Shown here one piece after another: positions 13,748 through 37,613 of a DNA stretch of 64,000 nucleotides. The notes beneath the pieces are model-generated. The model was given only the letters and a program-made list of their open reading frames with translations. It was not told where the DNA came from and did no database searches. Made by a program: the position numbers and the translations under genes. Position 1 is the stretch's first letter; each line of letters starts with the position of its first letter. Source of the DNA: Capsulimonadaceae bacterium (lineage in GTDB: Bacteria > Armatimonadota > Armatimonadia > Armatimonadales > Capsulimonadaceae); NCBI GenBank assembly GCA_965215505.1, contig OZ244065.1:3552001-3616000 (forward strand). Direction: 5' to 3'.

Positions 13748-13891
13748 GACGAGTGATTGAAATCACTCGCTGACGCAGGATTTGTCCAAGGGACAAGTGG
13801 ATAGGATTGTGCCCAGCGCCCGCCCCGTCCCGTCTGCCTCTTCTGTCCCCTGGACAGGTCCGACAGGAGCGAGTGATTTCAATCACTCGTC
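13748..13891. repeat. Palindromic MITE/REPIN-like element, copy 1
   Basis: GACGAGTGATTGAAATCACTCG...GTCCAAGGGAC...GTCCCCTGGAC...CGAGTGATTTCAATCACTCGTC. Confidence 0.9.
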
Positions 13892-16289: not shown

Positions 16290-16427
16290 AACGAGTGACT
16301 GAAATCACTCGCTGACGCAGGATTTGTCCAGGGGACAAGCGGACAGGATAGTGCCCAACGCCCGCCCCATCTGCCTCTTCTGTCCCCTGGACAGGTCCCA
16401 ATCAGCGAGTGATTTCAATCACTCGTC
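16290..16427. repeat. Palindromic element, copy 2
   Basis: Same terminal hairpins and inner GTCCAGGGGAC/GTCCCCTGGAC arms. Confidence 0.9.
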
Positions 16428-17272: not shown

Positions 17273-19426
17273 ATGAGTCCGCGACGTGTCCTGCTCTCCG
17301 TCGGGTCCCTCTGCGCCCTGGTGGCCGCCTCCCTCGCCGGGCCGGTCCGCGCCGACCAGGCCCTCTACACCGATTCCCTGCAAAACGGCTGGGTCAACTA
17401 TAGCTGGGCCTCGGTCAGCTTCACCGCGACCAGCCCCGTCCACACCGGGGCCGACTCGATCTCGGTCCAGTCCGGGCCGTACCAGGCCCTCTATCTGCAC
17501 CACGCCGCCCAGGCCGCCGCGCCGTTCACGGCCCTGACCTTCTGGATCAACGGCGGCCCGACGGGGGGCCAGCGCCTCCAGGTGCAGGCCACCCTGAACG
17601 GCAATCCTCAGCCCGCCTACGCCCTGCCCGTGCCCCAGGCGAATACCTGGACGCAGGTCACCGTCCCCCTGTCCGCCCTGGGCGTCGCGGGGCAGACCAC
17701 TTTCGACGGCATTTGGATACAGGATGCCAGCGGCGCGGCGACGGTCCCCGTCTTCTATGTGGACGACATGGCCCTGGTTTCGGCGGTGCAGACCGCGCCC
17801 GGCACGACGATCAAGGTGGACGTCGCGGCGAACCGCCACGCGATCAGCCCGCTGGTCTACGGGGTCGCCTACGGGGACGCCGCAAGCCTGGCCGACCTGA
17901 ACGCGCCTTTGAACCGGCAGGGCGGCAACAACACCACCCGCTACAACTGGCAGCTCAACGCCGACAACCGGGCCAACGACTACTTCTTTGAAAGCATCGG
18001 CGACACGGACCCGACGCCCGGCGGGCGCGGGGACGCTTTCATTTCGGCCTCCAAGTCCGGCGGCGCATCGGCGATGCTCACCATCCCGACCATCGGGTGG
18101 GTCGCGAAGCTCGGCCCGAACCGCGCCAAGCTGCCGTCGTTCTCGGTCGCCAAGTACGGCGCGCAGAAGAGTACCGACCCGTACCTGCCCGACGCCGGCA
18201 ACGGGGTGCTTGCGAGCGGCGCGAACGTCACCGGCAACGACCCGAACGACGCCGACGTGCCCTCGACGCCCGCCTTCCAGGCGGGCTGGATGAGCCACCT
18301 CGTCTCGCAGTGGGGGACGGGGGCGGCGGGCGGCCTCCAGTACTACATCATGGACAACGAGCCGAGCCTCTGGTTCAGCACCCACCGGGACGTCCACCCG
18401 GTCGGGCCGACCATGGACGAGGTCACGAACGACATCCTGGCCTACAGCGCCAAGGTCAAGGCCGCCGACCCGACCGCGAGCGTGGTCGCGCCCGAGGAGT
18501 GGGGCTGGTCCGGCTTCTTCTACAGCGGCTTCGACCAGCAGTACGGGGCCGCCCACAATTACCAGGGGGGCTACCCGGACCGCAATGCCCACGGCGGCAT
18601 GGACTATCTGCCCTGGATGCTCGGCCAGATCTCCAAGAACGACCAGGCCACCGGGAAACGCTCCCTGGACGTCTTCAGCGTCCACTTCTACCCGCAGAGC
18701 GGCGAGTTCAGCGACGCCACCGACACGGCGACGGTCCTGCTGCGGAACCGCTCCACGCGGCAGCTTTGGGATCCGAACTACGTTTCCGAGAGCTGGATCA
18801 ATGACAAGGTCATGCTGATCCCCCGGATCAAAGGCTGGGTGAACTCCTACTACCCCGGCACCAAGACCGCGATCACCGAGTATAACTGGGGCGCGGACGG
18901 CAGCATGAGCGGCGCGACGACCCAGGCGGACATCTACGGCATCTTCGGGCGCGAGGGCCTGGACATGGCGACCCGCTGGACCATGCCGGCCACTAACTCG
19001 CCGACGTACCAGGCGATGAAGCTGTACCGCAACTATGACGGCAAGAAGTCCGGCTTCGGCACCACCAGCGTCTCCGACATCGCCCCCAGCCCCGACACGG
19101 TCTCGTCGTTCGCCGCCATCCGCCCCTCCGACGGCGCTCTGACCGTGACGGTGATCAACAAGGACCCGTCCGCGACCGCCCCGGTGACTGTCTCGGTGGC
19201 GGGCTTCACGCCCGCCGCGACCGCCCAGGCGTGGCAGCTCACCGGCGCGACTGCCGCCATCACCCGCATCGCCGACGTTCCGGTCAAGAGCGCCGCGCTC
19301 TCGGTCAGCCTGCCCCCGCAGAGCGTCACGCTCTTCGTCATCCCGACGACCGGCATCCCCGTCTCGATCATCCCGCCCCCCGTCCGGCGTCCGGCCCCGA
19401 TGCCCCGGCCCGAGGTCGGGCCGTAG
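17273..19426 (+). CDS. Secreted GH44 endoglucanase with N-terminal carbohydrate-binding-like domain
   Basis: Signal peptide; HAISPLVYG, RQGGNNTTRYNW, MDNEPSLWFSTHRDVHP, AITEYNWG, GIFGREG. Confidence 0.88.
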   Translation: MSPRRVLLSVGSLCALVAASLAGPVRADQALYTDSLQNGWVNYSWASVSFTATSPVHTGADSISVQSGPYQALYLHHAAQAAAPFTALTFWINGGPTGGQRLQVQATLNGNPQPAYALPVPQANTWTQVTVPLSALGVAGQTTFDGIWIQDASGAATVPVFYVDDMALVSAVQTAPGTTIKVDVAANRHAISPLVYGVAYGDAASLADLNAPLNRQGGNNTTRYNWQLNADNRANDYFFESIGDTDPTPGGRGDAFISASKSGGASAMLTIPTIGWVAKLGPNRAKLPSFSVAKYGAQKSTDPYLPDAGNGVLASGANVTGNDPNDADVPSTPAFQAGWMSHLVSQWGTGAAGGLQYYIMDNEPSLWFSTHRDVHPVGPTMDEVTNDILAYSAKVKAADPTASVVAPEEWGWSGFFYSGFDQQYGAAHNYQGGYPDRNAHGGMDYLPWMLGQISKNDQATGKRSLDVFSVHFYPQSGEFSDATDTATVLLRNRSTRQLWDPNYVSESWINDKVMLIPRIKGWVNSYYPGTKTAITEYNWGADGSMSGATTQADIYGIFGREGLDMATRWTMPATNSPTYQAMKLYRNYDGKKSGFGTTSVSDIAPSPDTVSSFAAIRPSDGALTVTVINKDPSATAPVTVSVAGFTPAATAQAWQLTGATAAITRIADVPVKSAALSVSLPPQSVTLFVIPTTGIPVSIIPPPVRRPAPMPRPEVGP

Positions 19427-19431
19427 GCCAT

Positions 19432-19526
19432 GGAGCCGGACGCGCGGAGCCGGGCGCGCGGAGCCGGACGCGCGGAGCCGGGCGCGCGGAGCCGGACGCG
19501 CGGAGCCGGACGCGCGGAGCCGGACG
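19432..19526. repeat. Tandem repeat 14 bp x~7 (GGAGCCGGACGCGC) running into palindromic element copy 3
   Basis: Direct read. Confidence 0.9.
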
Positions 19527-19671
19527 AGTGATTGAAATCACTCGCTGATTCGGATTTGTCCAGGGGACAAGCGGATAGGATAAGGCCCGACGCCCGCCCC
19601 GCCCCGTCCTGTCTGCAATCTTCTGTCCCCTGGACAGGTCCGACCGGAGCGAGTGATTTCAATCACTCGTC
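19523..19671. repeat. Palindromic element, copy 3
   Basis: Same conserved arms; sits between convergent genes. Confidence 0.9.
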
Positions 19672-19707: not shown

Positions 19708-19980
19708 TCAGAGCAGCCACGGCGGGTGATGCGTCACCAAAGCCCACGCCTGCCACGCGAAGACCGCGCCCCAGAACAGCGTCACCCAGGGCGGCTTGGC
19801 CCAGCAGTGCCACTCCCGGACGCCCCGGAGCGCGGCCAGGACGTAGAACAGGGTCGCGAGGCCCGACAAGGCCAGCAGGGCGTAGCGCTGGAAGAGCAGC
19901 ACGAGGAAGGCCGCCTTGCAGAAGGTGAACGCCCAGCCCTCGTACCGCCGACCCTGCCGCTGACGGTCGTATTCGCTCAT
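19708..19980 (-). CDS. Small membrane protein
   Basis: Three hydrophobic segments; ATGA overlap with the GNAT stop. Confidence 0.75.
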   Translation of the reverse strand: MSEYDRQRQGRRYEGWAFTFCKAAFLVLLFQRYALLALSGLATLFYVLAALRGVREWHCWAKPPWVTLFWGAVFAWQAWALVTHHPPWLL

Positions 19981-20564
19981 CCCGCCCCCACCTGTTTCTC
20001 GGCCCCGTCGCGCCCCTCGGCCCCCTCATGCCTCTTGATTCCTTGCAGCAGCGGCGGGCACTTGCGGATCGCCCCGCCCTTGCGGATGCTCTCTGCAAAG
20101 CGGTGCCGGCTCGCCATGTAGCACTGCATGTACCAGTGGACGGCGAAGGGCGCGCGCCATAGTTTTCCGTCCACGGCCATGCCCAACTCGCGCATCCACC
20201 CGACCACCTGCGGGTTCCGGCTGAGGACGTAGACGTGCCGCCCGCGCCCCTGGGCGCGCTCCCAGGCCGCCCGGAACAGGTCCGCGCCCAGACCCCGGCC
20301 CCGGAACTCGGGCAGGACATATAGGGCCGCGATCTCCGTCCACCCGGCGGCGAGGTCCACGCTGAAGCAGACGCCCGCGAACCCGTCTCCGTCCCCCTCG
20401 GTCGCCTGTCCGGCGGCCTGTCCGGCGGCCTGTTCGGCGACCTGAACGTCGGTCAGCCGCTCCAGCTCGCGAACGGTGTAGCCGAGGATGTTGGGCGTCG
20501 TCTTCAGCTCCTGGTGCAGCCGGACGGCCTCGGCGCGGGTCAGCGGGCGGTGGGTGATTTGCAT
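19977..20564 (-). CDS. GNAT family N-acetyltransferase
   Basis: EIAALYVLPEFRGRGLG acetyl-CoA motif; AGGAG RBS. Confidence 0.85.
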   Translation of the reverse strand: MQITHRPLTRAEAVRLHQELKTTPNILGYTVRELERLTDVQVAEQAAGQAAGQATEGDGDGFAGVCFSVDLAAGWTEIAALYVLPEFRGRGLGADLFRAAWERAQGRGRHVYVLSRNPQVVGWMRELGMAVDGKLWRAPFAVHWYMQCYMASRHRFAESIRKGGAIRKCPPLLQGIKRHEGAEGRDGAEKQVGAG

Positions 20565-20653
20565 GGGTTCTCCTGGTTCGGTCCCGGCGCGACGAACCCG
20601 GCCCGCGACCACGAAGGAGGGCAGGGGGACCCTGCCCCTACGGGTTTATCGGT

Positions 20654-20742
20654 CTGCCGCGCCCTCGTCTCCTGCCGCGCCCTCGTCTCCTGCCGCGCCC
20701 TCGTCTCCTGCCGCGCCCTCGTCTCCTGCCGCGCCCTCGTCT
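20654..20742. repeat. Tandem repeat 18 bp x5 (CTGCCGCGCCCTCGTCTC), next to a GTAG-REP at 20619-20641
   Basis: Direct read. Confidence 0.9.
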
Positions 20743-20746
20743 GCCC

Positions 20747-22165
20747 TCACCCCAGCATCCGCAGCGGCACGACCGCCGCGCGGCCTTTGTCCCCGCTCCG
20801 GCGGCCCCGGCGGAAGACGTTGAACTCGCAGAACGACACGGCCGTCCCGTCCTCGGTCAGAATCTTGGTGCAGCACTGCTCGATGCGCTTCTTGTCGTAG
20901 GTGTGCGCGTCCATGAAGGGCTTGACGACGACGCGGAAGACGCGCCGGCCGAAGGCGTCGGGGTCGCGCATCAGCGGCAGGACGTCCCGCAGGCCGCCGC
21001 GCGCGAACAGGACGCCCAGGTCGCGCAGAGTCTGCCGGCCCCGCAGGTGCGCGACGTCCGACCAGACCCGCCGGGCCGCCCCGCCGACAAGCCCCGAGAA
21101 GCTGATGCGGTCCGTGAACAAATCTAGGTAGCGCGACACGTCCAGGTGCCGGGGCAGCGGCGTGATCGTCTCGCGCTTCGCGTCCAGGAAGCCATAGGTC
21201 AGGACGCAGCAGTCCGGGTGCGAGCAGGGCAGGCCCACGAAGTCCGAGCGCACCAGGGCGCCGCCGGTCTGCCGTTCCAGCGCGTACAGCACGTCCGTCA
21301 GGGTCAGCCGGTCCGCAGCCGCGTACTCGTGCTGGTAGCGGCCCGTGTCCATGACCGGCTGGAAGGTCAGCCCGGTGACCGTCCCCAGCGACAGCGCGAA
21401 GCGGTACAGGTCGCCGATCTCGTCGTCGTTCACCCCGCGCTCCACGGTGGGGACGAGGGTCGTGAACAGGCCCGCCGCCTGCGCTTTCTCCAGGGCGTCC
21501 GTCTTCTCCTGCCGCAGGTCGCGCCCGTAGAAGTGTTCGTGGCCGGACGCGCGGAAGCTCGAAAACGAGAAGTACAGCTCGACGCGCTCCTTGTGGGCCG
21601 CCAGCGTCTCCACCAGGGCCGCGCTCTGGCCGAGCCGCAGGCCGTTTGTGTTTATGACGACGCGGTCCACGGGGTAGGAGAGGGCCAGGTCTAAAATCTC
21701 GGCGAAGCGGGGGTGGATGGTCGGCTCGCCGCCGGACAGCATCAGGATGTCCAGCCGGGGCTGCTTGCGGAAGAACACGTCCAGCCGCCGCCGGGCCTCG
21801 TCCGCCGTCATGAAGTCGTGCCCCTGGGCGTCGGCGTAGCAGGTCGGGCAACGCAGGTTGCAGGCCTGCGTGATCTCCAGCAGCAGGGCGCAGACCGGCG
21901 GGCCGACCGCGCCGCCGGGGGTGCCGTCCGGCCCGCACGTCTCGCCCGGCCCGCAGCAGCAGTTCGCGCCGCTCCGGTCGGGGACGTACTGCCGGAGGCG
22001 CAGGTACTCGCCCGCGTCCGAGGCCAGCAGGGCGCGGCTTGCGCCGTGGCGCGGGCACTGCTGCCGTATCCAGATGCGCCCGGCCTCTTCAAGCAGCGTC
22101 GCAGGCACGTCCCGCAGGCAGGTCGGGCACAGGCCGCGCGTTTCTTCCGACCACGAGGTTGTCAT
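20747..22165 (-). CDS. Radical SAM protein, MJ0619/Tes (GDGT-MAS)-like family
   Basis: N-terminal CPTC...CPRHG metal site, CNLRCPTC, SGGEPT, NTNG, PCSHPDCC and C-terminal FMDAHTYD..RIEQCC...SFC auxiliary-cluster motif. Confidence 0.85.
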   Translation of the reverse strand: MTTSWSEETRGLCPTCLRDVPATLLEEAGRIWIRQQCPRHGASRALLASDAGEYLRLRQYVPDRSGANCCCGPGETCGPDGTPGGAVGPPVCALLLEITQACNLRCPTCYADAQGHDFMTADEARRRLDVFFRKQPRLDILMLSGGEPTIHPRFAEILDLALSYPVDRVVINTNGLRLGQSAALVETLAAHKERVELYFSFSSFRASGHEHFYGRDLRQEKTDALEKAQAAGLFTTLVPTVERGVNDDEIGDLYRFALSLGTVTGLTFQPVMDTGRYQHEYAAADRLTLTDVLYALERQTGGALVRSDFVGLPCSHPDCCVLTYGFLDAKRETITPLPRHLDVSRYLDLFTDRISFSGLVGGAARRVWSDVAHLRGRQTLRDLGVLFARGGLRDVLPLMRDPDAFGRRVFRVVVKPFMDAHTYDKKRIEQCCTKILTEDGTAVSFCEFNVFRRGRRSGDKGRAAVVPLRMLG

Positions 22166-22710
22166 GGGGCGGCCTCTTCGATACTTCCCTTTTGTTCCTT
22201 CAGTCGGTTATCGAGTTGATTCTGAACGGCGAGGCTGATCCGTTTTGCTTCCAAAGGATCATTCTTCACGCTCTGCATTCCTTGAGAGTAGCGTTTTCGC
22301 AGATCGACATGCTCCTGGGTGAACGCAGCTACTGGAAAGTTTTTGTCAATTTTCATCCGGTCTCTCAGTGTCTCTATATCAGTACGCAAGCCCGTAAAAA
22401 ACCGTTTGTTCTCCTCGTAGCCTTTGAGACGCTCGGGGATTCCCAAGACGGTGTTCACGATAGATAAAACGGCGGCAAGTCCTGCCAATGTCAGCCAGAC
22501 TGGTTTTGCATAGGGCTGCGTCCAGAATGCCCACCCCGATATGGCTGAACCCGAGGCCGTGAGCGTCACCAGCGCTTTGGTCCAGGCGTCGGACCTTTGG
22601 TAGAAAATAATATACCAATCGATAAGCATTTCCTGGTAATAAGCCTCGTAATAGGTGTTCCAGACCGCGTTCCAAAGTTGCAGGCGGTCGCGTGAGTACG
22701 GGTTTGACAT
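22162..22710 (-). CDS. SLATT-like two-TM protein (lower GC)
   Basis: Helix + two TM (ALVTLTASGSAISGWAFW; VWLTLAGLAAVLSIVNTVL) + helical tail; AT-richer codons; stop overlaps radical SAM start. Confidence 0.65.
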   Translation of the reverse strand: MSNPYSRDRLQLWNAVWNTYYEAYYQEMLIDWYIIFYQRSDAWTKALVTLTASGSAISGWAFWTQPYAKPVWLTLAGLAAVLSIVNTVLGIPERLKGYEENKRFFTGLRTDIETLRDRMKIDKNFPVAAFTQEHVDLRKRYSQGMQSVKNDPLEAKRISLAVQNQLDNRLKEQKGSIEEAAP

Positions 22711-22732
22711 TAGCGTCTCCGAGTGCTACAAT
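22704..22732 (+). promoter_or_regulatory. Consensus promoter TTGACA-17-(TGc)TACAAT, antisense to the surrounding operon
   Basis: -35 at 22704-22709, -10 at 22727-22732. Confidence 0.75.
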
Positions 22733-22761
22733 ATGGCTGTTAAAAAGGAGGAAGGGATAAC

Positions 22762-23034
22762 GTGAAAAGGCCTTTTGTAGTTTCTCCTGCATTCCTGTTC
22801 ATGGCAGGCGGTATCGTACTTTGCTCATTTGGCGGTGCCTTTGCTTCCTCTTCGGGTCATCATTTTACGCCCCCCCGTTCTGCCGGCACAGGCCCGCCAA
22901 AGGGTAAACCGCCGCCCCCGCCGCCGCCGCGAATTCTCCGCTCCTATCACGGGGCGAAGAGGCACTACACGCGACATCTTTCGAACCCGCGAGGACGAGC
23001 AGCCAGAGCACCGCACTCCCCGGTGACGCCGTGA
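22762..23034 (+). CDS. Small secreted Pro-rich basic peptide
   Basis: AAGGAGG RBS, consensus promoter, signal-peptide-like N-terminus. Confidence 0.5.
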   Translation: MKRPFVVSPAFLFMAGGIVLCSFGGAFASSSGHHFTPPRSAGTGPPKGKPPPPPPPRILRSYHGAKRHYTRHLSNPRGRAARAPHSPVTP

Positions 23035-23043
23035 ACAGGTAGG

Positions 23044-23445
23044 TCATAAGCCGCCGCTTCCGCTGAGGCTGTACAGACAAAAAGCAAACGCGCCTAGCAG
23101 CAGGGCCAGACCCGCCAGAATCCCATAGCCGATGCCGCGCGCAAAAACCGGGTAATTTCGTTTCAGCGTGAAGTACAGGACCGGCATCAGGAGGAACCCC
23201 GCCCCGGCGAGGAAGTTGGACAGGAAACTGAGGCCGATCCCCAGCGTCAGGTCCCCCCAAGCCCTTCCCGTGATCAGCCTGGGGACGGGCGGGGCCGGCG
23301 CGACCCGCCCGGCGGGCGGCGGGGACCAGGCGGGGCGGACAAAGCCGCAGTTCGGGCAGACGCCCGCGCCGGGCGGCCAGGGCGTCCCGCAGTTAGGGCA
23401 CGGCGTTATCTGTGGCGGCGTTATCTGTGGCGGTTCATCGGGCAT
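23044..23445 (-). CDS. Zinc-ribbon membrane protein, paralog 2
   Basis: CPNCG..CPNCG, WSPPP, three TM, ends LLLGAFAFCLYSLSGSGGL; alternative GTG start 23454. Confidence 0.8.
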   Translation of the reverse strand: MPDEPPQITPPQITPCPNCGTPWPPGAGVCPNCGFVRPAWSPPPAGRVAPAPPVPRLITGRAWGDLTLGIGLSFLSNFLAGAGFLLMPVLYFTLKRNYPVFARGIGYGILAGLALLLGAFAFCLYSLSGSGGL

Positions 23446-23450
23446 GGGCG

Positions 23451-23933
23451 TCACTGGTGGCCGTTCGTGCTGCACAGGGACAGGATGCCGAGCGCCAGCG
23501 CCGCCAGCACGGCGATCACCGCGAACGGCAGCAGGATACAGCCGGTCAGGACCCCCCAGCCCAGCCCGCGCGCGACGGTGGGGTAGCGGGGCCGCAGAAC
23601 GAGGTACAAAATGGGCGGCGCGAGCAGGCCCAGCCCCCAGCCCACGTTTCCACGGAAGAGTGACCCGTGGCCGGTCATCAGCGAAAGCGACGCGAGGCTG
23701 ATCACGAGGCTGATCGAAAGCCCCAGCGTCACGTCGCCCCCGACAGCCCCCGTCACCAGTGGCCCCGCCGCCAGCGGCCCCGCCGCCGGCTTGCCGACGT
23801 ATCGCGGGGCGACGAAGCCGGCGGGGGGCGGCGGCCAGACGGGGCGGACGCAGCCGCAGTTGGGGCAGACGGCGGCTGCGCCCGGCGGCCAGGGCGTCCC
23901 GCAGTTCGGGCAGAGGGGGGGCGGGACGGACAT
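23451..23933 (-). CDS. Zinc-ribbon membrane protein, paralog 1
   Basis: CPNCG..CPNCG, WPPPP, three TM, ends LALGILSLCSTNGHQ. Confidence 0.8.
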   Translation of the reverse strand: MSVPPPLCPNCGTPWPPGAAAVCPNCGCVRPVWPPPPAGFVAPRYVGKPAAGPLAAGPLVTGAVGGDVTLGLSISLVISLASLSLMTGHGSLFRGNVGWGLGLLAPPILYLVLRPRYPTVARGLGWGVLTGCILLPFAVIAVLAALALGILSLCSTNGHQ

Positions 23934-23954
23934 GGATCACCTCGCAGACCTGGA

Positions 23955-24662
23955 TCACCTCGCGGGGACCGCTCCGGTCCCCGCCTCGTTCGGGCCGGCG
24001 AGCCGGGTCGGGCGCAGCAGGCGCAGGAGCCGGACGCCGAAGAATGCCAGCCCCGCAAGGCACGCCCACTGCGCCCCGGTCAGCCCCCAGACGGGCGGGG
24101 GGCCTTCGCGGAAGAACTCGACGAGGAACCGGGCCAGGCAGTAGAGTACCCCTTGCAGATACCACAGGCCGTTCTCGGGCGGGCGCGTCTTGTCGAACCG
24201 CCACAGGGCGACCAGGATCAGGGCGCTGGCCGCCGACAGATAGAGCTGCGCCGGGTGCCGCCACGCGCCGTGCTGGTTGACGGCCCACGGCAGGGCGCAG
24301 GCCTTGCCGTAGCAGCAGCCGCCGAAGAAGCACCCCCAGCGGCCCACCGCCTCGCCCGCGCTGACGGCGACCGCGAACAGGTCCCCGGTCGGACGCCGCA
24401 GGCCCAGCCAGCGTTTGAAGAGGAGGACGGACAGGTAGCCGCCCGCGATGCCGCCCAGGACCGTCTTGCCCGCCTCGCCGCCCCCGAACAGGTGGGCGTA
24501 GGCCCACTGCGTCAGGTTCGCCCCGACCAGCCCGCCCAGAAGCCCCGCGCCCATGACCGCCATGACCCCGGCCGTCGCCAGGTGCCGCCGGTGCGCCATC
24601 CAGGCGAACGCGGCCACCCCGGTCAGATACCCCAGCGCATAGCACCCCGCCGAAAGCGTCAT
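23955..24662 (-). CDS. Divergent prolipoprotein diacylglyceryl transferase (Lgt)-family protein
   Basis: GEAVGRWGCFFGGCCYG, RHPAQLY, YCLARFLVEFFRE; promoter TTGCTT-17-TATAAT at 24713-24741. Confidence 0.85.
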   Translation of the reverse strand: MTLSAGCYALGYLTGVAAFAWMAHRRHLATAGVMAVMGAGLLGGLVGANLTQWAYAHLFGGGEAGKTVLGGIAGGYLSVLLFKRWLGLRRPTGDLFAVAVSAGEAVGRWGCFFGGCCYGKACALPWAVNQHGAWRHPAQLYLSAASALILVALWRFDKTRPPENGLWYLQGVLYCLARFLVEFFREGPPPVWGLTGAQWACLAGLAFFGVRLLRLLRPTRLAGPNEAGTGAVPAR

Positions 24663-24784
24663 GGCCCCGCCCCCCTCTGCACACACGAGTCCCGCGCACA
24701 CGAGATACCGGCATTATACGCCGATTCGCGCGGGGAAGCAAGGAGGCCCGGCGTCGGCCCCGATCCAGGGCCATCGCACCCGCC

Positions 24785-24849
24785 GGGCAACCACAGGGGG
24801 TTGCCCCTACCGACCACGAAAACGTAGGGGCAGGCCCCCGTGCCTGCCC
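24785..24849. repeat. Pair of inverted GTAG-type REP palindromes
   Basis: GGGCAACCACAGGGGGTTGCCCCTAC and GTAGGGGCAGGCCCCCGTGCCTGCCC. Confidence 0.8.
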
Positions 24850-24997
24850 TCTCTTCCCCGTGCTGCCCTCCCTTCCCCGTGCCTGCTCTCCCTCCCCCGT
24901 GCTCGCCCCTTGCCCTAGCGGACTGCTGTAGACAAAAAAGGGGCGATGGTGTATACTAGCGAGTAACACAACAAGGTAGACACGGGGGGAGAGCGAC

Positions 24998-25324
24998 TTG
25001 GCAGCAACAACGGGACGAACCACGAAGCAGTCCGCGACGGTCCGCATCAGCGCGCAGTCGCACCTCCGGCTGCGGGAGCTGGCCGCGCAGGACGGCGAGC
25101 CGATGCAGGCGGTCCTGGATAAAGCCCTGGAACAGTACCAGCGGCAGAAGTTCCTGGCCGACTGCGATGCGGCCTACGCCGCGCTTCAGCGGGACCCGGA
25201 AGCCTGGGCGGGCTATCAGGCAGAACTGGCGGCCTGGGAAGTGACCTCGATGGACGGGCTGGAACCCGAGGAAAACGGGAACGAAAGGGGCAGCGTTGCC
25301 GATGCGGGTGGTGCCTGTGGTTAG
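24998..25324 (+). CDS. Antitoxin (ribbon-helix-helix-like)
   Basis: TVRIS..HLRLRELA..MQAVLDKALEQY, acidic tail; promoter TAGACA-17-TATACT at 24929-24957; overlaps toxin gene. Confidence 0.8.
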   Translation: MAATTGRTTKQSATVRISAQSHLRLRELAAQDGEPMQAVLDKALEQYQRQKFLADCDAAYAALQRDPEAWAGYQAELAAWEVTSMDGLEPEENGNERGSVADAGGACG

Positions 25325-25658
25325 TCCGATCTATGGCGACATCTGGTTCGGGGATCTTGACCCCACGGTAGGGCGCAAGCAGGCCGGGGAGCGGCCCGTC
25401 CTGATACTCTCCGTTGACTCCTTCAACCGAAGCCCCGCCGGCCTCGTCGTCATCCTGCCCATCACCACGCGGCTCCGGGGCATCCCCTGGCACGTCCTGG
25501 TGTCGCCGCCGGAAGGGGGCCTGACGCGCCCGAGCGCCATCCTCTGCGAGGCGGTGCGGTCCGTCAGCCAGCAGCGCTTACTGCACCGGATGGGGGTCGC
25601 CGCCCCGGCGACCCTCGAAGCCGTCCGGGACCGGCTACGCATCCTGATGAACCTCTGA
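25302..25658 (+). CDS. mazF: PemK/MazF family toxin
   Basis: GDIWFGDLDPTVGRKQAGERPVLILS..FN...VVILPITT; start uncertain. Confidence 0.88.
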   Translation: MRVVPVVSPIYGDIWFGDLDPTVGRKQAGERPVLILSVDSFNRSPAGLVVILPITTRLRGIPWHVLVSPPEGGLTRPSAILCEAVRSVSQQRLLHRMGVAAPATLEAVRDRLRILMNL

Positions 25659-26424: not shown

Positions 26425-26576
26425 GACGAGTGATTGAAATCACTCGCTGACCTTGGACCTGTCCAGGGGACAGAAGAAGGACAGGATGAAGGACAGGATG
26501 AAGGATAGGATGGCACCCTCGGTTCCCTTGTCCCCTGGACAAATCCTACCGAAGCGAGTGATTTCAATCACTCGTC
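26425..26576. repeat. Palindromic element, copy 4 (opposite orientation)
   Basis: Inner arms swapped (GGACCTGTCCAGGGGACAGAAG on the left). Confidence 0.9.
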
Positions 26577-37476: not shown

Positions 37477-37613
37477 GACGAGTGATTGAAATCACTCGCT
37501 TCGGCAGGATTTGTCCAGGGGACAACCGGACGGGAGGATGCCGAACATGCTCCCCTTCCCTCTTCTGTCCCCTGGACAGGTCCGGCGGCAGCGAGTGATT
37601 TCAATCACTCGTC
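37477..37613. repeat. Palindromic element, copy 5
   Basis: Same conserved arms. Confidence 0.9.

Follow-up and report, generated by a model that had tools for sequence, protein, structure and literature searches.

The window analysed here is a 64,000-nucleotide stretch from a Capsulimonadaceae bacterium (contig OZ244065.1, positions 3,552,001 to 3,616,000); it has a G+C content of 69%, is part of a complete 6.18-Mb genome, and encodes proteins whose closest relatives carry the labels Armatimonadota, Capsulimonadaceae, and Chthonomonadaceae. Seven of its open reading frames (ORFs), all on the minus strand and spanning 24662 down to 19708, had been singled out in a first-pass annotation as a candidate system for modifying lipids or lipoproteins, and the genes, their motifs, and the upstream TTGCTT-17-TATAAT are all where that annotation placed them. 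Our main finding is that the cluster contains a conserved unit of four gene types: a paralog of Lgt, small membrane proteins with a cysteine close to the C-terminal end (the tail cysteine; here the proteins also bear zinc ribbons), an enzyme of the radical S-adenosylmethionine (SAM) type, and a membrane protein of 90 amino acids (aa). The radical SAM enzyme is a homologue with the fold of the tetraether synthase Tes and is not a Tes in the curated sense, and the two remaining genes, which encode a GNAT acetyltransferase and a SLATT-like protein, are local inserts outside the module. For the unit as a whole we tentatively propose, at somewhat less than an even chance, a dedicated diacylglyceryl-type transfer to the tail cysteine of the small proteins that would be coupled to radical chemistry on lipid tails. 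What is new here is the Armatimonadota form with its zinc-ribbon N-terminal domains, the counts that define the unit, a residue map in E. coli numbering, and the recognition of the GNAT and SLATT-like genes as inserts.

The conserved four-part linkage and its distribution

To define the unit, we surveyed the neighbourhoods of 78 loci with relatives of the radical SAM gene, taking one genome per species and searching with all seven proteins; 54 of the loci are from Armatimonadota, and among these 38 have at least 2.5 kb of sequence upstream and 50 at least 700 nt downstream. The Lgt paralog lies upstream of the radical SAM gene on the same strand in 34 of the 38 (within 3 kb in 30), and the 90-aa gene lies downstream in 45 of the 50 (within 300 nt in 34). 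The zinc-ribbon proteins are detected by homology in just 26 of 38 loci. When they are sought by build instead, as ORFs of 60-260 aa with a C-terminal hydrophobic stretch and a cysteine among the last 20 residues, 38 of 40 Armatimonadota loci have one or more of these tail-Cys ORFs between the Lgt-like gene and the gene for the radical SAM enzyme, against a background of 35 in 2242 ORFs. Their number per locus ranges from 1 to 13, the maximum being reached in locus L019 (3800-9900), from a Capsulimonadaceae genome, in which 13 helix-plus-Cys ORFs follow one another in tandem between the two enzyme genes.

The GNAT and SLATT-like genes, which the first-pass annotation had counted as members of the pathway, were each found in none of the 78 related loci. 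The SLATT-like gene has a foreign composition (GC 0.51, with a G+C content at third codon positions, GC3, of 0.60, against GC3 values of 0.80-0.95 in the remaining genes), and unrelated genes occupy the same junctions elsewhere; we therefore regard both genes as passengers, the GNAT gene having a native-like GC3 of 0.89. The description of the SLATT-like gene as an insert agrees with its composition, and its assignment to the SLATT family is a weak call: 19.1 bits with NF033634 (cut-off 41), E=4.8e-6 with the PADLOC model for reverse transcriptase (RT)-associated SLATT (RTasSLATT), and no Pfam match. The GNAT assignment has PF00583 at 33.3 bits against a gathering threshold of 20.7. In other Armatimonadota, insertions concentrate at both junctions, that between the small-protein genes and the radical SAM gene and that between the radical SAM gene and the 90-aa gene, and the cargo of these hot spots includes toxin-antitoxin-like small gene pairs, lipoprotein genes with signal peptides, and a 292-aa gene (L006:3707-4272; L020:10731-11236; L008, L009, and L011, between the zinc-ribbon and radical SAM genes; L012:11672-12550).

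The linkage of the Lgt-like gene with small Cys-tailed genes, suggested from the one locus, is kept in other genomes and other phyla. Among 24 more distant loci, in which the radical SAM enzyme is 33-38% identical to the one studied, 14 carry an Lgt-like gene that immediately precedes the radical SAM gene or is fused to it; these come from Burkholderiales, Chloroflexia, Mycobacterium, an actinomycete, Chloracidobacterium, Blastocatellia, and Pirellulaceae. The Lgt-like neighbour is missing in the other ten (Gemmataceae, Myxococcota, one Chloroflexota locus, and several short contigs). Three natural fusions join Lgt, a zinc ribbon, and the radical SAM enzyme in that order in one polypeptide: the representative sequences P0128 and P0162, and a 718-aa ORF at L056:9095-11251. 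The Chloroflexia loci repeat the whole four-part order, with small proteins whose N-terminal domains differ and whose C-terminal membrane part and tail cysteine are alike; 90-aa homologues occupy the same position in the Chloroflexia loci L057, L063, and L075, where they share the motif AFTFCK with the protein studied, and also in L072. Burkholderiales, Mycobacterium, and Pirellulaceae loci carry a tail-Cys membrane ORF next to the enzyme pair, and the small proteins of Mycobacterium and Burkholderiales again combine other N-terminal domains with the same helix-plus-Cys tail. No conserved peptidase or exporter was found in the loci surveyed. The four-part linkage and the fusions of the enzymes, which occur in some phyla, are accordingly established, as are the folds and residue patterns described below.

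The enzyme pair and the small membrane proteins

The Lgt paralog matches PF01790 at 91.8 bits (gathering threshold 24.9) and, at 43.8 bits, falls under the cut-off of 118.9 of the equivalog model TIGR00544. It is a second copy: a genome search with PF01790 gave 91.6 bits for the paralog and 198.6 bits for a canonical Lgt encoded elsewhere. A sequence search of the PDB with the paralog gave no match; seven helices are present in its structural model (pLDDT 89), whose sole significant fold match in the PDB is E. coli Lgt (5AZB, TMq 0.72), with which the paralog shares the seven-helix fold and the residues of the donor site. In our residue map, for which E. coli lgt was aligned with 30 paralogs and whose E. 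coli numbering is used throughout, G142, R143, G145, G154, R239, E243, and D129 are kept in 30/30; R246 is Arg in 28 and Lys in two, Y26 is kept in 23, and Y235 in 26. R143 and R239 are catalytic in E. coli Lgt (Mao et al. 2016, PMC4728403), and the essentiality of the catalytic and donor-site residues is taken from that study and from PMC13251419. The paralogs depart from the canonical enzyme at position 103, which is Leu, Val, or Ile in all 30 and His both in E. coli and in the canonical copy of the same genome, and in the head domain, from which the region of W256 and Y259 is missing; position 100 is Lys in 28 of the 30. In E. coli, none of the substitutions H103A/N/Q/R/Y complements, and the HGGL motif has been proposed to bind the lipobox peptide (PMC4728403); a 2026 study gives Tyr, Trp, or Phe at position 103 in the Lgt of other phyla (PMC13251419). 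We read this pattern as that of an enzyme in which the donor-lipid site is probably kept and the acceptor site probably changed. The active site of E. coli Lgt is on the periplasmic half, and its N terminus adds a strand to the periplasmic head (PMC4728403); given such a periplasmic N terminus, a seven-helix paralog would end in the cytoplasm, which agrees with the C-terminal position of the radical SAM enzyme in the fusions. A Cys-rich stretch of the paralog, GCFFGGCCYG, was considered as a peculiarity and dropped, the canonical Lgt of the genome having GCLLNGCCYG; N146C and E151C are known Lgt variants (PMC13251419). For the second lgt homologue of mycobacteria, the literature found, which did not extend to supplementary material such as Fig. 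S8 and Table S2 of PMC13251419, gives no function beyond speculation.

The two zinc-ribbon proteins of the cluster, ZnR1 and ZnR2, are paralogs with 65% identity over residues 10-77, each with a CPNCG...CPNCG ribbon. ZnR1 matches PF13240 with E=4.9e-5 at 23.4 bits, slightly below the cut-off of 25, and ZnR2 has a DZR match with E=0.05; apart from one weak ribbon-only match (E=4.9e-4), the genome contains no ZnR-type genes beyond the clustered two. Among 47 ORFs of the zinc-ribbon family, 45 carry a cysteine within the last 20 residues, followed by a median of 9 residues (range 2 to 17) and typically preceded by L-G-x-x-x-x, and the residue at position -1 is V, L, I, T, W, or F in 39 of the 45. 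The canonical lipobox has a small residue at position -1, and the LGxxxxC tail, as a putative lipidation motif, differs from it; the presumed acceptors also differ from canonical Lgt substrates in that their motif lies where a polytopic protein ends, with no N-terminal lipobox. By our reading of the positive-inside rule, the ribbon and an Arg/Lys-rich loop would be cytoplasmic and the tail cysteine would lie at the outer end of the last helix, which is where the lipobox cysteine of a signal peptide sits. The 90-aa protein has no Pfam or NCBIfam family, and its neighbours in the protein atlas are unnamed Armatimonadota clusters; its Cys21 is kept in 26 of 26 sequences, and Cys59 is nearly invariant.

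The radical SAM enzyme matches PF23545 and PF04055 and has the motifs CPTC...CPRHG and FMDAHTYDKKRIEQCC...FC. Its resemblance to M. jannaschii MJ0619 (GDGT-MAS, 7TOL), proposed in the first-pass annotation from the architecture, is borne out at the levels of both sequence and fold: phmmer aligns it end to end with 7TOL at E=1.2e-49, and its AlphaFold model (pLDDT 78, pTM 0.82) superposes on 7TOL with TM-scores of 0.75/0.72 over 504 columns, the other PDB entries matching the radical SAM core alone at no more than 0.38. The four-domain build of GDGT-MAS (rubredoxin-like, N-terminal, radical SAM core, and C-terminal) is present in the model, and C13, C16, C37, H40, C102, C106, C109, C314, C319, C431, C432, and C446 are invariant in 25 sequences. 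Among the named models the best-scoring is that of TrsS (NF045646), which matches from end to end (positions 2-432 of 441) at 228.9 bits, below its cut-off of 490. A FastTree phylogeny was built from 149 sequences, namely the enzyme studied, 34 loci (10 of the 54 from Armatimonadota), and 114 representatives, 36 of 150 representatives shorter than 400 aa having been left out. In it, the representatives that pass the TrsS cut-off (P0203, P0238, P0250, and P0255; 556-595 bits) belong to a 17-tip clade of their own (support 1.0) that excludes the enzyme studied, and every Lgt-adjacent or Lgt-fused sequence, the three fusions included, falls in the half of the midpoint-rooted tree opposite to Tes and TrsS, a split whose support is ambiguous after re-rooting (0.51 or 0.99). 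The genome search found no further member of the superfamily in this genome.

Set beside the known systems, the enzyme shares with Tes/GDGT-MAS (MJ0619, 7TOL/7TOM, NF045702) full-length homology and the same overall fold, and its rubredoxin-like CxxC...CxxH, CX3CX2C, and C-terminal cysteines (SHPDCC, QCC...FC) align with those of 7TOL. The metal sites of Tes are given in section 2.1 of PMC13459092 as a 3Cys+His iron, CX3CX2C, an N-terminal 3Cys+His cluster, and a C-terminal 3Cys+Met cluster, together with a cluster-assisted coupling mechanism. Unlike Tes, the enzyme studied has CCCGPGExCG...C92 at the position of the N-terminal cluster motif, scores below the Tes cut-off, falls in a separate clade, comes from a bacterial host with ester lipids, and belongs to a clade partnered with or fused to an Lgt-like protein. 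From TrsS it differs in its partners, since true TrsS representatives are fused to MobA-like/HD or DUF5714 domains and not to Lgt; in print, we found TrsS only as a row in a table (PMC13188914). Mss of Thermotoga, also a radical SAM enzyme, has been proposed to couple the tails of bacterial lipids and is described in PMC13159169 as only remotely related to Tes, with no Lgt partner reported there; our comparison with it is by description only. Counts of Tes homologues in bacteria have been published, together with the proposal that these enzymes make branched tetraethers, a function described as undemonstrated (PMC8941075, PMC11868695). In a search that did not cover supplementary tables such as those of PMC8941075 and table S21 of PMC13159169, no publication was found to connect a gene of the Lgt family with a radical SAM enzyme resembling Tes.

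Layout of the locus and neighbouring elements

The features of the cluster are collected in Table 1.

Table 1. Features of the cluster, from promoter-like site to last gene, in window coordinates
Feature	Coordinates	Strand	Remarks
Promoter-like site	24713..24741	-	TTGCTT 24741-24736, 17 nt, TATAAT 24718-24713; read from sequence
Lgt paralog, 235 aa, seven helices	23955..24662	-	core part
ZnR2	23451..23933	-	core; N-terminal CPNCG..CPNCG ribbon, Pro-rich linker, three hydrophobic segments, tail ...LGILSLC-STNGHQ
ZnR1, 133 aa	23044..23445	-	core; build as ZnR2, tail ...LGAFAFC-LYSLSGSGGL
SLATT-like protein with two transmembrane segments, 182 aa	22162..22710	-	local insert, outside the module
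Radical SAM enzyme, Tes/TrsS superfamily, 472 aa	20747..22165	-	core; unnamed Lgt-linked clade
Perfect 18-bp tandem repeat, 4.9 copies	20654..20742		spacer between radical SAM and GNAT genes
GNAT acetyltransferase, 195 aa	19977..20564 (alternative start 20612)	-	local insert that separates the radical SAM gene from the small-protein gene
Small membrane protein, 90 aa	19708..19980	-	core; invariant Cys21 (AFTFCK), Cys59 nearly invariant

The TTGCTT-17-TATAAT site is a plausible candidate promoter; its -35 hexamer agrees with the consensus at three of six positions, and the site is absent from the consensus-scan list. For the Lgt paralog, the ATG at 24662 is preceded by GAGGGGGG, and orthologues begin at the same MTLS; the longest possible ORF would start from a GTG at 24701. 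In gene order, the six junctions measure 21 nt, 5 nt, 333 nt, a 4-nt overlap, 182 nt, and a 4-nt overlap, so that the earlier description of mostly tight junctions holds for four of the six (the overlaps being SLATT-like/radical SAM and GNAT/small-protein gene) and fails at the 333-nt and 182-nt spacers. Contigs from four sequencing runs span the whole cluster, the SLATT-like gene included, and contigs from two runs are shorter by 52 nt at the 18-bp repeat, which lies in the 182-nt spacer. A few contigs connect 19980 to 20801 and thereby omit the GNAT gene; we give these joints no weight, because their sides are short (about 30 nt, 85% likeness) and they may derive from related organisms.

Several repeats surround the cluster. 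Besides the 18-bp repeat within it (4.9 copies, 100% matches), tandem repeats are found at 19432-19526 and 24836-24902, with units of 14 bp (6.8 copies) and 20 bp (3.4 copies). An intergenic element of about 115-145 bp, with near-palindromic 18-mer ends (GAGTGATTGAAATCACTC and a variant), occurs in five copies per 64 kb, where none is expected (13751-13888, 16293-16424, 19526-19668, 26428-26573, and 37480-37610); one copy adjoins the 3' side of the 90-aa gene, and metagenome contigs accumulate there and end at 19619 and 19672, as expected of a multi-copy repeat resembling a miniature inverted-repeat transposable element (MITE) or repetitive extragenic palindrome (REP). The 333-nt spacer contains on the plus strand (22704-23034) a strong promoter-like site, TTGACA-17-TACAAT with a TG, which agrees with the consensus at 11 of 12 positions and is followed by a plus-strand ORF of 90 aa with a signal-like start and a Pro-rich middle and without a PADLOC match; this ORF may have come in together with the SLATT-like insert. 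Directly upstream of the cluster are two small overlapping ORFs, 24998-25324 (+) and 25296-25658 (+), which, by eye, we take to resemble an antitoxin with a PemK/MazF-type toxin; directly downstream, on the opposite strand, is a 717-aa ORF with a signal-like N terminus (17273-19426, +).

A proposed mechanism, its rivals, and their meaning

The mechanism that we infer combines lipidation with the coupling of lipid tails. The Lgt paralog would bind a diacylglycerol phospholipid and move its diacylglyceryl group, at the outer face of the membrane, to the tail cysteine of the dedicated small proteins, substrates that the canonical Lgt site would refuse. The radical SAM enzyme would dock at the cytoplasmic C terminus of the paralog and take a hydrogen from an alkyl tail, whether that of the donor lipid or one in the attached anchor, after which a new C-C or C-S bond could form by cluster-assisted coupling, by analogy with Tes; the 90-aa protein may serve at the cytoplasmic face as a subunit or as a second cysteine partner. 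In its most elaborate form, which we consider quite unlikely, the product would be a covalent staple across the bilayer, in which a diacylglyceryl group on the outer tail cysteine has an acyl tail radical-coupled to the tail of an inner-leaflet lipid or to Cys21/Cys59 of the 90-aa protein. If such a staple were real, it would be a protein-bound membrane-spanning lipid, and thus an undescribed kind both of protein lipidation and of bacterial membrane-spanning lipid.

A number of observations weigh against this proposal. The first-pass annotation had compared the radical SAM enzyme with Tes; the shared fold upholds the comparison, and the scores and the phylogeny do not, as the Tes model NF045702, whose cut-off is 450 bits, gives the enzyme 197.5 bits (164.4 bits in the genome search), and a 32-tip clade of Tes and TrsS (support 0.97), which contains the representatives that pass as Tes (P0228 at 556 bits and P0236 at 593 bits), excludes it. 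Taken strictly, this placement outside the Tes clade counts against the annotation by the standard that it had set for itself. Residues 62-87, where the loop of the N-terminal cluster is expected, have a Cys pattern unlike that of Tes, align poorly, and are modelled with a pLDDT below 50. In the TrsS branch, P0264, P0265, and P0256 carry as fused domains either DUF5714 or a MobA-like nucleotidyltransferase, the latter with or without HD, a hint that this branch works outside lipid chemistry and perhaps in connection with a cofactor; given these fusions, the superfamily is not confined to lipid chemistry. With an aliphatic residue at position 103, the paralog may be dead as a transferase and serve only as a lipid-binding anchor, and the topology of the small proteins has the positive-inside rule as its sole basis. 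In the loci examined from Acidobacteria, Gemmataceae, and Myxococcota, the search for tail-Cys ORFs yielded none. The distribution is also patchy: close orthologues of the radical SAM enzyme occur in 41 of 401 sampled Armatimonadota genomes, these 41 coming from no more than four families, and 10 of 17 further species in the genus of this bacterium have one; the module is dispensable and accessory.

Two of these points, position 103 and the Acidobacteria loci, favour a role in lipid remodelling alone, in which the paralog no longer lipidates proteins and is a membrane anchor and lipid-presenting domain, the Tes-like enzyme, to which it hands a phospholipid tail, produces modified lipids, tail-coupled ones (membrane-spanning or macrocyclic) or others, and the small Cys proteins are scaffolds or regulators. 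We place this account close behind the lipidation proposal and regard it, taken singly, as somewhat unlikely. In the fusions the Lgt-like domain directly bears the radical SAM enzyme, the paralogs keep the donor-lipid site and have lost the residue needed at position 103 in E. coli, and Chloracidobacterium L071 and Blastocatellia L077 have the enzyme pair alone, without a detected tail-Cys ORF; moreover, the tail-coupling enzyme for iso-diabolic acid in Acidobacteria is still described as unknown, with bacterial Tes homologues proposed for the step (PMC8941075, PMC13159169, PMC11868695). Yet the tail cysteine (45/47) and Cys21 (26/26) are too well kept for plain scaffolds, the expansion of the small proteins to as many as 13 copies in L019 resembles that of a substrate family, and the literature searched holds no record of a membrane-spanning lipid in Armatimonadota. 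The same tandem paralogous small proteins (1 to 13 copies) beside a radical SAM gene also recall peptide-maturation clusters, and the chemistry might be directed at protein, forming a thioether or other cross-link at the cysteines of the small proteins, to which the paralog adds a lipid, so that the product would be either a short C-terminal peptide bearing a lipid or a membrane protein with a cross-link. The mere 2 to 17 residues that follow the tail cysteine would suit such a product, and the TrsS branch shows the superfamily in non-lipid contexts. We nevertheless find this improbable: the enzyme has the whole four-domain GDGT-MAS fold and not a SPASM build or one for recognition of ribosomally synthesised and post-translationally modified peptides (RiPPs), its best peptide-maturase matches cover the core only (TMq at most 0.38), the tail cysteine has its predicted place at the outer face, remote from an enzyme in the cytoplasm, and the loci lack a conserved peptidase or exporter.

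It is highly improbable that all seven genes, GNAT and SLATT-like included, form one pathway read from one promoter. They do share a strand, two of their junctions overlap by 4 nt, and the GNAT gene is native-like in GC3, but neither of the two genes recurs in any related locus, other genomes hold toxin-antitoxin-like pairs, lipoprotein genes, or others at both junctions, the SLATT-like gene is of foreign composition, and a strong promoter-like site points along the plus strand inside the 333-nt spacer. Least credible of all, with next to no chance of being right, is an accidental adjacency of unrelated genes, in whose favour one may cite the patchiness within the phylum, and which is already contradicted by a gene order kept across phyla and by three natural fusions.

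One large bacterial branch of the Tes superfamily is tied to a special copy of Lgt and to small proteins with conserved cysteines, sometimes within one polypeptide. This points to one of two novelties, a route by which membrane lipids are modified or a kind of protein lipidation with a substrate motif of its own. It also calls for caution in reading genomes, since a bacterial "Tes hit" does not always signify a capacity for tetraethers; bacterial relatives of Tes, counted in many genomes, are the proposed makers of branched tetraether lipids, which serve as climate proxies (PMC8941075, PMC11868695).

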